From Malacoraja senta (lineage: Eukaryota): DNA of 64,000 nt. The position numbers were made by a program, and so were the translations under genes. The DNA is taken from assembly GCA_038087875.1 (NCBI GenBank), contig CM075989.1:1984001-2048000 (forward strand). Direction: 5' to 3'. Below, piece by piece: positions 8,031 to 52,451 of the stretch (position 1 is the stretch's first letter; every line of letters starts with the position of its first letter). The notes under the pieces were generated by a model. The model was not told the origin of the DNA, ran no database searches, and saw nothing but the letters and a program-made list of their open reading frames with translations.

Positions 8031-8668
8031 CCCACCCTGCCCCAGTCCCAGATCACGTGTCAACCTTTGCCCTTGGCTGAAGGTGGGGTCCATCTACTCT
8101 GATACATCCACCCTGGGGGTGGGGCTGCTTACAGAGAAAGTAAATCACCCAGGGCACAAGGACGGACACACACAGAGACAAAGGTTTGCATGTGAAACAC
8201 ACTCAAATCTTTGGCATCTTGAGTCTAACTGTCCTGCGTCAGTAGCACAGGCCCCAGTGACCACCGCCTCCTTAAAACCTATAAAACAAAACAAGAACAC
8301 AAGACAAAAAAAACCACAGAAAACATCAAATTAAAACTATGTAAATGAAAAGGGAAATGAAATGAAGCAAGATGGAACCGAACTGAAACATTAAAATGCA
8401 CAAGAACGCGCTCTGAGTCTGGAGGCTGATGAATTGGGATTATGTAGTTCCCCACATCTCGCACAGATAACTCACACTTCATCAACTAGCTCGCAGTGTC
8501 TACTAGCAGATGGATAGATTTGTTGAAATTTACATCTGGAAAGGCCTTGTAACTGTCAATGAACTTGTGCAGGGAGGATCTGCAGATGCCGGTTTAAACC
8601 CACAATAGACACAACATGCTGGAGTGACTCAGCGGGTCAGGCAGCATCTCTGGAGAGAAGGAGTAGGT

Positions 8669-8696
8669 GACGTTTCGGGTCGAGACCCTTCTTCAG
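8669..8696 (-). ncRNA. Minimal type-I hammerhead ribozyme core
   Basis: CUGAAGA A GGGU-CUCG-ACCC GAAACGUC. Confidence 0.7.
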
Positions 8697-8902
8697 ACTG
8701 AGAGTCAGGCAAACGTTGGTTGATGTTGTTTTGGGCAGTAGGTACAGAAGCCTGAAGCCCCTCATCACAAGGTTCAGCAACAGATACTTTCCTACACAAT
8801 GTGTAAGAAGGAACTACAGATGCTGGCTTACACCGAAGATAGACATAAAACGTTGGAGTAACTCAACGGGTCAGACAGCATCTCTGGAGAAAAGGAATAG
8901 AT

Positions 8903-8930
8903 GACGTTTCGGGTCGAGACCCTTCTTCAG
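8903..8930 (-). ncRNA. Minimal type-I hammerhead ribozyme core
   Basis: Identical core to 8669-8696. Confidence 0.7.
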
Positions 8931-9489
8931 GCTGTCAAAGATCTGTGAACAGTCTGATGAAGCGTCTTGATCCAAAATGTCACCTATCCCTTTTCTCCGG
9001 TGATGTATCTATACACTGTAAATGGATCGATTGTAATCATGTATTGTCATTCTGCTGACTGGTTAGCACGCAACAAAAGCTTCTCACTGTATCTCGGTAC
9101 ACGTGACAATAAACTAAACTGAAACGGAAACTGAGCCGCTGAGTTATTCGGGCATGTTGTGCCTACTTTCCTACAAATATTGGGATCTTGACCCAACCTG
9201 CACAACCCTAACCCTACCTCAGCCACGGAACACACCTTGTCGCATGGCCTTACCTCATGCACCTGGTTTGGTTCTAATTGTATTTTGCATTAATGCTTTA
9301 TGTTTCTGCACTGTTTTATTTTCCTGCAGTCTTGCAGAATTTATGTGTAACTTCTGCATCATTTATGTATAATTTCAGTTTTATATTTTCTCAGAGCTAA
9401 ATGTGCCTGTGTTGCTGTTGCAAGTAAGATTTATATGGTGGCTGTACCTCACTGTATGACACTAGACTTGATTAGTCTTGACATGTGTG

Positions 9490-9660: not shown

Positions 9661-10280
9661 AAATGACCCAGTTGAGAATTTCTGACAAACTTATTCAGGT
9701 ATATGGATATTTTTAAGGCATAGATAGATAGATTCTTGATTAGTACAGGGGTCAGGGGTTACTGGGACAAGGCAGGAGAATGGGATTGAGAGGGAGAGAT
9801 ACAGTAGATCAGCCATGATTGAATGGCGGAGGAAACTTGATGGGCCGAATGGCCTAATTCTTCACCTATCACTAAAAATGAATGAGTTTGAAAGAGGAAT
9901 GGCCAAGGAGGGCAGGGTATTATCATCATCAGGTTTAGACAGAGTAAAGAGTAAACTCTGGCAACATTTCACAAAGTCTTTCAACGTAAATAACAAACCA
10001 CTGCAATGTCAGCTATGGCAGTACAGTAAACAGGAGGGGAATCTGATAGGTGTAGGAAGGAACAGCAGATGCTGGTTTAAACCAAAAATAGACACAACAT
10101 ACTGGAGTAACTCAACGGGACAGACAGCATCTCTGGGGAGAAGGGATGGGGGATGTTTTGGGTAACTTAACCCATGTCTACCATGAAGAAGTTACCTGAA
10201 ACATCACCCATTCCTTCTCTCCAGAGATGGGGTTGAGGGTGGGGATGGGGATAGGAGGGTGCCAGCACCTACAGATTCGA

Positions 10281-10935
10281 GGTGAGGGTGGGGATCGGGG
10301 TGGGGGTGGGGGTGAGGGGTGGGTGTGGGTGAGTGTGGGTGTGGGGGTGGGGGTGTGGGTGGGAGTGTGGGTGGGTGTGGGTGTGGGGGTGGGGGTGTGG
10401 GTGGGTGAGTGTGGGTGTGGGTGTGGGTGTGGGTGTGGGTGTGGGGGTGGGTGTGGGGGTGTGGGTGTGGGTGGGGGTGGGTGTGGGTGAGTGTGGGTGT
10501 GGGGGTGGGGGTGGGGGTGTGGGTGGGGGTGTGGGGGTGTGGGTGTGGGGGTGGGGGTGTGGGGGTGGGGGTGTGGGTGTGGGTGGGGGTGGGGGTGGGG
10601 GTGGGGGTGGGTGTGGGGGTGTGGGTGTGGGTGGGGGTGGGTGTGGGTGAGTGTGCGTGTGGGGGTGGGGGTGTGGGTGTGGGTGGGGGTGGGGGTGGGT
10701 GTGGGGGTGTGGGTGTGTGGGGGTGGGTGTGGGTGTGGGGGTGGGGGTGTGTGGGGGTGGGTGTGGGGGTGTGGGTGTGTGGGGGTGGGGGTGGGTGTGG
10801 GGGTGTGGGTGTGGGGGTGGGTGTGGGGGTGGGGGTGTGTGGGGGTGGGTGTGGGTGTGGGGGTGGGGGTGTGTGGGGGTGGGTGTGGGTGTGGGGGTGG
10901 GGGGTGGGTGTGGGTGAGTGTGGGTGTGGGGGTGA
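10281..10935. repeat. Degenerate (GGGTGT/GGGGGT)n tract
   Basis: ~650 bp made almost entirely of G and T. Confidence 0.97.
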
Positions 10936-11049
10936 GGTCGAGGGTCCCAGCAGGGTTAAACCAGGAGCGGGGTCTCCTAGCGAGTGATGTACTAACCTCC
11001 TCCACTCACACATCTGAAGCTTTATGTTAAATGATTCTTGTCCAATGTT

Positions 11050-21490: not shown

Positions 21491-22109
21491 TTCCACACTT
21501 GCACAATCCTACGTCCTCTTTAAACAAAGTATGTCTTGACTTAACTACAGGATATTCAGTTACAAGACACAAAAAAGACTGCATAGATCTGGTACCCATT
21601 GTGACCATAGAACATCCAAAAATGGTTACAGTTCAACATGTTATTAAAGTATGCGTATATTAACAGTCAACCTCTAATACATAAGAGATGATATACAAGG
21701 GATTGCAGATGCTGGAATATTGAGCAAAAAACAAAGTTGCTGGAGGAACTCTGCGGGTCAGGCAGCATCTGTGAGGGGTCTCCGGAGACCGGTAGATAGC
21801 CAGTCAGTACCGAAACTCCAGCTGAGGTTCGAACTGGGAAGTAGGGAACTGGAGCTGGAAGCCATGAGGTATGAGATGGAGGCGCAGGCATGTCCCGTCT
21901 GTGAGGGAATCTGTGAGGGAATGGACAGATGACGTTTTGGGTTGGGACCATTCTTCAAACTAATTCACATAACAGAAGCTTCCACGAATACCAAATAAAC
22001 TATGCAAAAGCTGTAAATAATCCGCAGATTAGCAGGAAAGAGGAATGGAATAAGTGTTTCACAACATAAGAATTTCATTGTTCCATGTGGGTACATATGA
22101 CAATTACAT

Positions 22110-22893: not shown

Positions 22894-23033
22894 ATGATCT
22901 CAGTCCTTCAAATGACTCAGTAAATAATGCAGGACTTCCAAGTTGCATACACTGTGAAAAGCTATTCACAGTGTATGCAACTTGGAAGTCATGCATCTCA
23001 TTTACCTGAGTCATTGACTAGGACTGAGATCAT
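22894..23033. repeat. 140-bp near-perfect palindrome
   Basis: Centre AGCT at 22960-22963; arms complementary out to atgatctcagtcc / ggactgagatcat. Confidence 0.92.
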
Positions 23034-23153
23034 TGGAATTAAGTGTCAAGAAGGAACTGCAATGCTGGAGAATCGAAGGTAGACAAAAATGCTGGAGAAA
23101 CTCAGCAGGACGGCAGCATCTCTGGAGCGAAGGATATAGGCAACGTTTCGGGC

Positions 23154-23181
23154 CTGAAGAAGGGTTTCGGCCCGAAACGTT
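23154..23181 (+). ncRNA. Minimal hammerhead core, subfamily B (GUU triplet)
   Basis: CUGAAGA A GGGU-UUCG-GCCC GAAACGUU. Confidence 0.6.
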
Positions 23182-27721: not shown

Positions 27722-27905
27722 TTCACTAAAATTGGAATATTCAACCTTCACACTGGAAGGTTGTAAGCTACTCAAGTGAAATATGAGGTGATGTTCGTCC
27801 TGTTTGCTTGTGGCCTCACTCTGACAATGGAGGAGGCCCAGGACACAAAGGACAGAATGGGAATGGAAAGAGGAATTAAAATGGTGAACAATCAGGAGAT
27901 CCAGC
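27722..27905 (-). pseudogene. Penelope-like element ORF C-terminus (GIY-YIG region)
   Basis: Translates to HHFNSSFHSH..VLGLLHCQSEA..DEHHLIFHLSSLQPSSVKVEYSNF. Confidence 0.75.
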
Positions 27906-47559: not shown

Positions 47560-47774
47560 TAGATAGACACAAAAAGCTGGAGTAACTCAGTGGGACAGGC
47601 AGCATCTCTGGGAGAGAAGGAATGGGTGACGTTTTGGGTTTCAGTCTGAAGAAGGGTCTCAACCCGAAACGTCACCCATTCCTTCACTCCAGAGATGCTG
47701 CCTGTCCCGCTGAGTTACTTCAGCCTTTTATGTCTATCTTCGGTTTAAACCAGCATCTGCAGTTCCTTCCTACA
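47560..47774. mobile_element. PLE inverted unit with 15-bp TSD
   Basis: cata(a/g)aatagtacaa at 47545-47559 and 47775-47789. Confidence 0.85.
47646..47673 (+). ncRNA. Minimal type-I hammerhead ribozyme core
   Basis: CUGAAGA A GGGU-CUCA-ACCC GAAACGUC. Confidence 0.68.
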
Positions 47775-47789
47775 CATAGAATAGTACAA

Positions 47790-49336: not shown

Positions 49337-49652
49337 AACGGTTGGGGGGAGGGACTCAAATAGAGAACGCTATTAGACAGTGTGTGAGGCAGGAGGCAGA
49401 GAAGGAAAGCACTCAGACCCAACATGTAGGGGAGAAAGAAGAAAACAATAATAAACAGAGAATAAGAGGTGGTGGGGTTCTTAAATGGGTGAGCAGAGAA
49501 ACAGAGGGGTGTAAAATGCAGGCGGAAGCAATAGGTAGCAAGGTGAAAAGTAAAAGTGGCAGGCAGACAAATCCAGGGCAAAAACAAAAAGGGCCACTTT
49601 TCAACATAATTGTATAAGGGGTAAGAGCGTTGTAAAAACAAGCCTGAAGGCT

Positions 49653-52451
49653 TTGTGTCTCAATGCAAGGAGCATTCGTAATAAGGTGGATGAGTTGAAC
49701 TTGCAGATAGCTATTAATGATTATGATATAGTTAGGATCACGGAGACATGGCTCCAGGGTGACCAAGGCTGGGAGCTGAACATCCAGGGATTTTCAATAT
49801 TCAGGAGGGATAGAGAGAAAGGAAAAGGAGGTGGGGTAGCATTGCTGGTTAGAGAGGAGATTAACGCAGTGGAAAGGAAGGACATTAGCTTGGAGGATGT
49901 GGAATCGGTATGGGTAGAGCTGCGAAACACTAAGGGGCAGAAAACGCTGGTGGGTGTTGTGTACAGGCCACCTAGCAGTAGTAGTGAAGTTGGGGATGGC
50001 ATCAAACAGGAAATTAGAAATGCGTGCAACAAAGGCAAAACAGTTATAATGGGTGACTTCAATCTACATATAGATTGGGTGAATCAAATTGGCAGGGGTG
50101 CTGAGGAAGAGGATTTCTTCGAATGTATGCAGGATAGTTATCTAAACCAACATGTAGAGGAACCAACGAGAGAGCAGGCTATTCTAGACTGGGTAATGAG
50201 TAATGAGGAAGGGTTAGTTAGCAGTCTTGTTGTACGTGCCCCCTTGGGCAAGAGTGACCATAATATGGTTGAGTTCTTCATTAGGATGGAGAGTGACATT
50301 GTTAATTCAGAAACAATGGTTCTGAACTTAAAGAAAGGTAACTTTGAGGGTATGAGACGTGAATTGGCCAAGATTGACTGGCAATTAGTTCTAAAAGGGT
50401 TGACGGTGGATATGCAATGGAAGGCATTTAAAGACTACATGGATGAACTACAAAAATTGTTCATCCCAGTTTGGCAAAAGAATAAATCAGGGAAGGTAGT
50501 GCATCCGTGGATAACAAGGGAAATCAGGGATAGTATCAAAGCAAAAGATGATGCGTACAAATTAGCCAGAAAAAGCAGCATACCAGAGGACTGGGAGAAA
50601 TTCAGAGACCAGCAGAGGAGGACAAAGGGCTTAATTAGGAACGGGAAAATAGATTATGAAAGAAAACTGGCAGGGAACATAAAAACTGACTGCAAAAGTT
50701 TTTATAGATTTGTGAAGAGAAAGAGATTAGTTAAAACAAATGTAGGTCCCTTGCAGTCAGAAACAGGTGAATTGATCATGGGGATCAAGGATATGGCGGA
50801 CCAATTGAATAACTACTTTGGTTCCATCTTCACTAAGGAAGACATAAATAATCTGCCGGAAATAGCAGGGGACCGCGGGTCAAAGGAGATGGAGGAACTG
50901 AGTGAAATCCAGGTTAGTCGGGAAGTGGTGTTGGGTAAATTGAATGGATTAAAGGCCGATAAATCACCAGGGCCAGATAGGCTGCATCCCAGAGTACTTA
51001 GGGAAGCAGCTCCAGAAATAGTGGATGCATTAGTGATAATTTTTCAAAACTCTTTAGATTCTGGAGTAGTTCCTGAGGATTGGAGGGTAGCAAATGTAAC
51101 CCCACTTTTCAAGAAGGGAGGGAGAGAGAAAACGGGGAATTACAGACCAGTTAGTCTAACATCGGTAGTGGGGAAACTGCTAGAGTCAGTTATTAAAGAT
51201 GGGATAGCAGCACATTTGGAAAGTGGTGAAATCATTGGACAAAGTCAGCATGGATTTACGAAAGGTAAATCATGTCTGACGAATCTTATAGAATTTTTCG
51301 AGGATGTAACTAGTAGAGTGGATAGGGGAGAACCAGTGGATGTGTTGTATCTGGACTTTCAGAAGGCTTTCGACAAGGTCCCACATAAGAGATTAGTATA
51401 CAAAATTAAAGCACATGGTATTGGGGGTTCAGTATTGATGTGGATAGAGAACTGGCTGGCAAACAGGAAGCAAAGAGTAGGAGTAAACGGGTCCTTTTCA
51501 CAATGGCAGGCAGTGACTAGTGGGGTACCGCAAGGCTCAGTGCTGGGACCCCAGCTATTTACAATTTATATTAAAGATCTGGACGAGGGAATTGAAGGCA
51601 ACATCTCCAAGTTTGCGGATGACACTAAGCTGGGGGGCAGTGTTAGCTGTGAGGAGGATGCTAGGAGACTGCAAGGTGACTTGGATAGGCTGGGTGAGTG
51701 GGCAAATGTTTGGCAGATGCAGTATAATGTGGATAAATGTGAGGTTATCCACTTTGGTGGCAAAAACAGGAAAGCAGACTATTATCTAATTGGTGGCCGA
51801 TTAGGAAAAGGGGAGATGCAGCGAGACCTGGGTGTCATGGTACACCAGTCATTAAAAGTAGGCATGCAGGTGCAGCAGGCAGTGAAGAAAGCGAATGGTA
51901 TGTTAGCTTTCATAGCAAAAGGATTTGAGTATAGGAGCAGGGAGGTTCTACTGCAGTTGTACAGGGTCTTGGTGAGACCACACCTGGAGTATTGCGTACA
52001 GTTTTGGTCTCCAAATCTGAGGAAGGACATTGTAGCCATAGAGGGAGTGCAGAGAAGGTTCACCAGACTGATTCCTGGGATGTCAGGACTTTCATATGAA
52101 GAAAGACTGGATAGACTCGGCTTATACTCGCTAGAATTTAGGAGATTGAGAGGGGATCTTATAGAAACTTACAAAATTCTTATGGGGTTGGACAGGCTAG
52201 ATGCAGGAAGATTGTTCCCGATGTTGGGGAAGTCCAGGACAAGGAGTCACAGCTTAAGGATAAGGGGGAAATCCTTTAAGACCGAGATGAGAAAAAACTT
52301 TTTCACACAGAGAGTGGTGAATCTCTGGAACTCTCTGCCACAGAGGGTAGTTGAGGCCAGTTCATTGGCTATATTTAAGAGGGAGTTAGATGTGGCCCTT
52401 GTGGCTAAAGGGATCAGGGGATATGGAGAGAAGGCAGGTACGGGATACTGA
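49653..52451 (+). CDS. CR1/HER1-clade LINE ORF2 (APE endonuclease + reverse transcriptase), uninterrupted 932 codons
   Basis: EN motifs CLNARS, ITETW, VYRPP, MGDFN, SDH; RT motifs NYRPVSLTS, YLDFQKAFDKV, GVPQGSVLGP, FADDTK; CR1 C-terminus LVRPHLEYC..WSP. The ORF opens on TTG; the likely ATG (49516) is one nt out of frame. Confidence 0.95.
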   Translation: MCLNARSIRNKVDELNLQIAINDYDIVRITETWLQGDQGWELNIQGFSIFRRDREKGKGGGVALLVREEINAVERKDISLEDVESVWVELRNTKGQKTLVGVVYRPPSSSSEVGDGIKQEIRNACNKGKTVIMGDFNLHIDWVNQIGRGAEEEDFFECMQDSYLNQHVEEPTREQAILDWVMSNEEGLVSSLVVRAPLGKSDHNMVEFFIRMESDIVNSETMVLNLKKGNFEGMRRELAKIDWQLVLKGLTVDMQWKAFKDYMDELQKLFIPVWQKNKSGKVVHPWITREIRDSIKAKDDAYKLARKSSIPEDWEKFRDQQRRTKGLIRNGKIDYERKLAGNIKTDCKSFYRFVKRKRLVKTNVGPLQSETGELIMGIKDMADQLNNYFGSIFTKEDINNLPEIAGDRGSKEMEELSEIQVSREVVLGKLNGLKADKSPGPDRLHPRVLREAAPEIVDALVIIFQNSLDSGVVPEDWRVANVTPLFKKGGREKTGNYRPVSLTSVVGKLLESVIKDGIAAHLESGEIIGQSQHGFTKGKSCLTNLIEFFEDVTSRVDRGEPVDVLYLDFQKAFDKVPHKRLVYKIKAHGIGGSVLMWIENWLANRKQRVGVNGSFSQWQAVTSGVPQGSVLGPQLFTIYIKDLDEGIEGNISKFADDTKLGGSVSCEEDARRLQGDLDRLGEWANVWQMQYNVDKCEVIHFGGKNRKADYYLIGGRLGKGEMQRDLGVMVHQSLKVGMQVQQAVKKANGMLAFIAKGFEYRSREVLLQLYRVLVRPHLEYCVQFWSPNLRKDIVAIEGVQRRFTRLIPGMSGLSYEERLDRLGLYSLEFRRLRGDLIETYKILMGLDRLDAGRLFPMLGKSRTRSHSLRIRGKSFKTEMRKNFFTQRVVNLWNSLPQRVVEASSLAIFKRELDVALVAKGIRGYGEKAGTGY

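Follow-up and report, generated by a model that had tools for sequence, protein, structure and literature searches.

Short repeats carrying a minimal hammerhead ribozyme motif recur throughout the window, by which we mean the whole analysed stretch of 64,000 nucleotides of Malacoraja senta contig CM075989.1. The question raised by this locus is whether such copies litter the genome with latent self-cleaving sites at one per 2 kb, as the original prediction proposed, or whether the ribozyme serves the element from which the copies derive.

Hammerhead motifs in the window

Searching the window with the CTGAAGA pattern at ≤3 mismatches returned 21 matches (0 in shuffled sequence), and a profile search, which gave 0 in the reversed control, found 56 fragments of a 100-140-nt repeat that together make up 6.9% of the window. 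By our own count from the profile list, ~38 of the 56 fragments include the motif, and the earlier estimate of about 30 copies was therefore fair. The motif copies present the hammerhead core CUGANGA ... GAAA ... NUH, and their alignment has an unpaired base between positions 9 and 10.1 and a G10.1-C11.1 pair. Stem III is an ACGU palindrome (15.2-16.2) with loop 3 absent or tiny, and stem I has 2 bp followed by an A-C mismatch; the ACGU, the 2-bp stem I (rightly raised as a caveat at the outset) and an A at position 7, which is variable among relatives, are found in all five of the sequence clusters defined below. No Rfam hammerhead family matched the motif at E up to 1, in our reading because the models expect longer stems.

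A strict test, combining the core, a 4-bp stem II, a palindromic stem III and NUH, was passed by exactly four window copies, 8669(-), 8903(-), 23154(+) and 47646(+), the same four that had been singled out as intact. Two of these descriptions need correction: the cleavage site at 23154 is GUU, not the GUC assigned to it, and 8903 is intact in its core and stem II but lacks its own stem I pair. The features of the window that concern the element are as follows.

8669..8696, minus strand: intact minimal hammerhead motif (CUGAAGA, unpaired A, 4-bp stem II, GAAA, palindromic ACGU, stem I of 2 bp)
Between 8669 and 8668, minus strand: predicted cut of the 8669 motif (C17 = 8669)
8563..8710, minus strand: solo pLTR copy, truncated on its 5' side and ending in the longer (tail) 3' form, with ~14 nt of element sequence 5' of the core
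8903..8930, minus strand: second motif, its core and stem II intact but with 0 bp in its own, broken stem I
8796..8934, minus strand: solo pLTR copy, tail included, sharing 84% identity with the 8563-8710 copy, from which unrelated DNA separates it
8950..9005, plus strand: decayed head-to-head inverted partner of the 8903 copy, from the profile search
23154..23181, plus strand: intact young-subfamily motif (closing pair U-G, loop UUCG, site GUU); the fragment carrying it measures 36 nt and is joined to an inverted copy at 23043-23154
47646..47673, plus strand: intact motif in the pLTR copy 47642-47777, with an inverted partner at 47561-47640
27728..27901, minus strand: decayed GIY-YIG C-terminus fragment of the element, 53% identical to P0002 residues 1166-1223
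21789..21896, minus strand: N-terminus fragment of the element ORF, 83% identical to P0002 residues 63-98

A distance of 234 nt separates the 8903 and 8669 copies, which share a strand and could form half a dimer. Their reading as a tandem unit was rejected on their 84% identity and the unrelated spacer, and they are separate insertions. At 47646, where the motif copy is fused to its inverted partner, folding predicts that the inverted partner buries the core in a long hairpin. We found no host genes in the window, where 150 of 159 unmasked ORF pieces had no Pfam family at its cut-off. Three further features were observed: an intact 965-aa ORF with AP endonuclease and RT domains, of a CR1/L2-type LINE (49554-52451, plus strand); a 70-bp near-perfect palindrome at 22927-22996, possibly a small MITE, with a microRNA model match under the cut-off on both strands; and a long G/T-rich simple repeat with strong GC skew at 10230-11000.

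The source element and its copies in the genome

Searching for GIY-YIG domains identified an RT-endonuclease fragment with the repeat immediately behind it; with this fragment as query, 103 scored copies were obtained, several of them in ORFs of >1,200 codons. The motif-bearing pLTR lies ~110-120 nt 3' of the stop of a 1,224-aa RT + GIY-YIG ORF. Among the listed 10-kb stretches around long ORFs, the repeat follows the ORF end at L059-L067, L069 and L070, with the arrangement ORF-pLTR-ORF-pLTR at L066, and no repeat match was obtained at L068. Read directly, the P0002 ORF contains DKG, YIDD, a CX4CXXC linker and a GIY-YIG-type end; its RVT_1 match (E 6.7e-6) is under the cut-off, and the GIY-YIG cut-off was exceeded by a relative 88% identical to the element family. 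The genome contains intact 1,224-aa source elements that are nearly identical to one another; the youngest elements carry the UUCG loop and GUU site, and the more abundant CUCG/GUC form (exact CTCG/GTC motif) likewise reaches the ORF end in many copies. These sequences point to a young, endonuclease-bearing (EN+) Penelope-like element as the source, and support the proposal of a Penelope-like pLTR with a minimal type I hammerhead and a loopless ACGU stem III.

Most informative long copies (23 of 29, one being the query's own locus) run upstream into a preceding copy. Among 231 fragments, 98 have a head-to-head inverted partner within 150 nt and 53 a same-strand neighbour within 300 nt, and target duplications of 10-15 bp were found in ~10 of 188 copies. 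Of 275 3' ends, 142 and 86 gather in two groups with ~35 nt between them, at ~65 and ~100 nt past the cleavage site. On the 3' side of the hammerhead, AGAUGCUG pairs with the tail's CAGCAUCU, enclosing a small hairpin by the first 3' end (8563-8645, minus strand; L066:4105-4175), and in this modelled fold the AGAUGCUG/CAGCAUCU stem is a candidate signal for the start of reverse transcription.

With Neptune-type EN+ elements, as described in PMC8557442, the skate element shares a single ORF with RT and C-terminal GIY-YIG, DKG, a CX2-5CXXC linker, partial tandems, inverted 5'-truncated copies and a tail; the placement with Neptune/Nematis is by motifs, not by a tree. A sharp cluster of 5' ends at the hammerhead edge, considered below, is a difference, not being described in the passages of that source consulted here.

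The first GIY-YIG search had returned mainly a second Penelope-like family, telomere-associated, without the window's repeat and 32% identical to the first, with two ORFs (597 and 759 aa, RT + GIY-YIG). Its loci (G000 C14:18.24-18.41 Mb, near the contig end, C17:1-12 kb, C5550 and C1804; L023-L033) include tandem arrays of near-identical units that alternate with (CCCTAA)n at contig ends, where TTAGGG-type repeats are found; the family is endonuclease-bearing yet telomere-associated. Its own hammerhead, at L027:6907, was judged by eye to have 8 bp in stem I and 5 bp in stem III, the latter with a loop, a structure that should work as a monomer. We regard this second family as more interesting than the hammerhead finding in the window.

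Genome-wide, the exact 28-mer occurs 18,728 times in 1.94 Gb (reversed control 0). In forty 10-kb stretches at preset positions on large contigs (400 kb), 188 fragments made up 3.7% of bases, and 24 motifs were strictly intact, or ~1 per 17 kb. The proposed density of one copy per 2 kb thus holds for fragments and fails for intact motifs, which are ~8 times rarer. Extrapolation gives ~0.9 million repeat fragments and ~120,000 intact motifs (range roughly 75,000-170,000) in the genome. Minisatellites of 38-59-nt units from the hammerhead region were also observed (L196, L209; G000 C21:1887086-1887527, C21:4503342-4503734, C5:2.03-2.41 Mb and C6:1.536 Mb), and their 39-nt units keep the whole core in tandem with a stem I of ~1 bp.

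Selection in the source lineage and decay of inserted copies

The 132 of 323 fragments that span the core unit were clustered on flank columns only, giving five clusters. When the commonest letters of the clusters were compared, none of the 11 core columns differed, as against 22 of the 63 in the flanks (p 0.027), so that the proposed check of core against flank conservation among subfamilies was passed; stem changes among the clusters keep pairing (U-A to U-G) but are one-sided. More distant comparison drew on 80 relative loci, from metagenome contigs only, of which the 36 with a match near the ORF end were examined and 32 had at least 150 nt downstream. The motif was found on the sense strand in 15 of these 32, at 85-318 nt behind the ORF match, and on the antisense strand in 0; in 17 of the 32 no motif was detected under the descriptor used. 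Relatives at ~35-55% protein identity retain the core with covarying stems, and stem I of most relatives has 3-6 bp. In an alignment of 12 relatives with 3 local copies the core is invariant, the flanks are unrelated, and double changes affect two columns of stem II and every one of the four in stem I. Six of 10 pairs change on both sides, with a covariation of 0.465 against 0.18 shuffled and ≤0.10 slid, values obtained from sequences that are kin and chosen by motif, the shuffle value not being a probability. These comparisons indicate that the hammerhead is under selection in the source lineage.

The inserted copies behave differently. Across 90 spanning copies from the window and the preset stretches, G12 had become A in 20 of 83; the stem III CpG was changed in 18 of 88 (C15.2>T) and 15 of 88, and the flank CpG in 9 of 67 and 8 of 67. 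Stem II had been described as keeping its arms while the loop varies: the named loop variants do exist, part of their variation being CpG decay, but the arms decay too, C11.1 having changed to T in 14 of 83 copies. The intact share runs from the youngest to the oldest cluster as 7/17, 10/32, 5/18, 1/16 and 0/7. Inserted copies decay neutrally, and G12 is lost at the CpG rate. Non-CpG core A positions did change less often than flank A (15 of 447 vs 38 of 538, p 0.011), and at C, G and T positions of the same copies no core-versus-flank difference was seen; the slower decay of core A may reflect subfamily structure left in the flanks, or weak selection on copies.

The source ribozyme may itself be degenerate, with its 2-bp stem I and an energetically unfavoured dimer: the modelled active dimer lies 16-22 kcal/mol above the best fold, against gaps of 7-16 in the relatives, in a model that has no tertiary terms and in which the gaps do not cleanly separate the element family from the relatives. 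Lunse et al. reportedly described in 2016 hammerheads that cleave as dimers.

Cleavage, insertion and the cluster of 5' ends

The copies continue through the cleavage site without a break. Only 14 of 400 5' ends, with no peak, and 4 of 275 3' ends fall near it, no pile-up of ends was found there among short copies, and of the 29 long copies 2 begin no more than 4 nt away, too few to interpret. The RNA template of the copies was thus likely uncut, with the proviso that religated or circular RNA would give the same genomic trace. A closely similar picture has been reported for the Anolis carolinensis element PAc (Poseidon), in which cleavage is protein-dependent and dispensable for insertion, no read ends map to the site, and reverse transcription begins at either of two internal points, to which a 30-40-bp tail is attributed (Frangieh et al. 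2024, PMC11167929). The skate copies share the two-point 3' ends with an optional 30-40-bp tail, the uncut template and the lack of ends at the cleavage site, here from genomic copies alone; in contrast to PAc, the skate element has a Zn-finger-like linker of Neptune/Nematis type, and its first ATG is well 3' of the hammerhead, that of PAc being inside it.

Minimal hammerheads were described in metazoan Penelope-like pLTRs, thousands of them dispersed in fish, amphibian and reptile genomes, by Cervera and De la Pena in 2014 (PMC4209133). A single minimal hammerhead did not cleave and dimers were weak; helix I has 4-5 bp, and 2 bp in the Drosophila virilis variant. The skate motif has the same CUGANGA/GAAA core, extra base between 9 and 10.1, G10.1-C11.1 pair, loopless palindromic stem III, pLTR position and mostly dispersed single copies. 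It differs in its 2-bp stem I, as against 4-5, and in a copy number ~10 times that of Xenopus (~9,000) and coelacanth (~4,000).

In agreement with the behaviour reported in PMC11167929 and PMC4209133, we consider it very probable that the copies are 5'-truncated end-pieces (pLTRs) of the element, that the hammerhead is conserved in the source elements and likely acts as a slow, protein-assisted dimer on the element's own RNA, and that the scattered copies decay by ordinary mutation and are likely inert. By analogy with Anolis, the element protein would nick target DNA and reverse transcription would start inside the RNA at one of two points, on uncut (or religated) RNA. About half of the events reaching the hammerhead would stop at its 5' edge, leaving a 100- or 135-nt piece, and the ribozyme, slow, dimeric and protein-assisted, would serve the source element by its predicted cleavage.

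How copies come to end at that edge can be read in two ways. Among 104 core-reaching copies, 50 lose likeness within 12 nt upstream and 39 extend at least 30 nt. Nested exact genome counts over the four bases upstream of TCTGAAG fall from 43,217 through 37,493, 29,340 and 22,605 to 17,522, that is by 13%, 22%, 23% and 22% per base against a decay of 3-7% inside; beyond these four bases, 22 of 30 copies run on far (by eye). Just 1 of 24 long elements reaching the hammerhead edge stops there, and the TCAG-N-CTGA palindrome is the midpoint of 8 of 16 two-sided inversions. Two readings are left, an RNA start in solo pLTRs and stalling or fold-back at this palindrome. In the first, solo pLTRs would form a SINE-like unit, transcribed from the hammerhead 5' edge and copied in trans by the element protein, a proposal about where the copies come from, which does not conflict with the view of the ribozyme preferred above. 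The fall in counts with its far-running remainder and the near-absence of long elements stopping at this point argue for it, as does TCAGTCT, which matches the initiator pattern YYANWYY. Penelope moreover has an internal promoter (PMC2377424). Yet no single start base emerges, three copies bounded by target duplications keep a C upstream of the presumed +1, part of the fall in counts is subfamily variation, and the inversions at the palindrome favour fold-back or stalling; we regard the SINE-like origin as doubtful, though worth keeping in mind.

Two related candidates were discarded. A cap-derived G at the 5' junction is unsupported, since the excess of G before AGT (2,673 G, 2,151 A, 1,911 T) lies inside the target duplication, and is thus target-derived, in both resolvable cases. 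A splicing-gated ribozyme, suggested by a pyrimidine tract and CAG before the core and a donor-like CAG/GTAG at the stop codon, was rejected because 1.24 Mb contained no spliced copy, the youngest subfamily lacks the donor and the relatives have no AG. A search of openly available article texts returned no description of such a 5'-end cluster. A broader speculation, to which we give little credence, takes the ~1 million copies as a fossil record in which reverse transcription starts at two fixed points and runs off the RNA 5' end just before the hammerhead, the solo pLTRs being self-propagating units of 100-135 nt and the hammerhead a protein-triggered decapping switch, not a cutter of precursors. 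If true, a hammerhead at the very start of a capped RNA would explain the 2-bp stem I.

The same short stem could mean instead that the hammerhead is vestigial as an enzyme, its stem I eroded and its sequence kept for, e.g., protein binding or as a promoter. All five clusters have the 2-bp stem with its A-C mismatch and an A at the position 7 that varies in relatives, the copied RNA bears no sign of cleavage, and cleavage is dispensable for insertion in vitro (PMC11167929). However, all 11 core columns are unchanged across subfamilies, stem changes keep pairing, and the Drosophila virilis motif likewise has a 2-bp helix I (PMC4209133); loss of enzymatic function is in our judgement unlikely.

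We consider it improbable that intact solo copies cleave host transcripts at ~100,000 latent sites, by pairing in trans or with another copy carried by the same RNA. The 24 intact motifs per 400 kb and the genome-wide range extrapolated from them, the 53 of 231 fragments with a same-strand neighbour, and the 8903 and 8669 pair on one strand would provide the substrates; against this stand the loss of G12 at the CpG rate, a stem I of only 2 bp, the 98 of 231 fragments with an inverted partner and the predicted burial of the 47646 core. Monomers of minimal hammerheads showed no cleavage and dimers little (PMC4209133), and of nine dimers from Xenopus eight failed to cut (bioRxiv 2026.07.22.740005). 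The reading of a littered genome is accordingly unsupported, since intact motifs are rare, decay neutrally, have a 2-bp stem I and usually lack a partner, and since published minimal hammerheads are inactive as monomers and poor as dimers, the Anolis one being protein-dependent.

That the repeats are non-LTR retrozymes, tandem units replicating via small circular RNAs, is scarcely credible: some tandem pairs and 38-59-nt mini-arrays are present and contigs of a related organism show go-back joints of ~165 nt, but the 18,728 exact motifs compare with 163 tandem matches at 148-178-nt spacing, the hammerhead is of the minimal and not the canonical type, and the window copies are solo or inverted, not in tandem arrays. 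Non-LTR retrozymes, as described in PMC7229834 and bioRxiv 10.64898/2026.07.22.740005, are likewise pLTR-derived, non-coding and hammerhead-bearing, and differ in their tandem arrays, classically canonical hammerheads and circular RNAs. At L066:4056-4199, run X1 (related organism, presumed RNA) showed go-back joints with units of ~150-170 nt, from tandem pLTR arrays or circles. None of the records that contain the sequence is catalogued as RNA, and the three presumed-RNA sets and one unlabelled set consulted consist of contigs, in which RNA ends are not visible.

The hammerhead of the source element, probably slow and protein-assisted, with its decaying, likely inert copies belongs to a motif kind known since 2014, of which the one in Malacoraja senta is an unusually abundant further member; on hammerheads in cartilaginous fish, a search of openly available article texts returned nothing relevant. 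It adds a very high-copy vertebrate example, not a new ribozyme. The 5'-end cluster at the ribozyme edge offers a measurable hint of how reverse transcription is completed in these elements, and the intact 1,224-aa sources, together with ~1 million dated relics, make a good system for finding out what Penelope hammerheads do.
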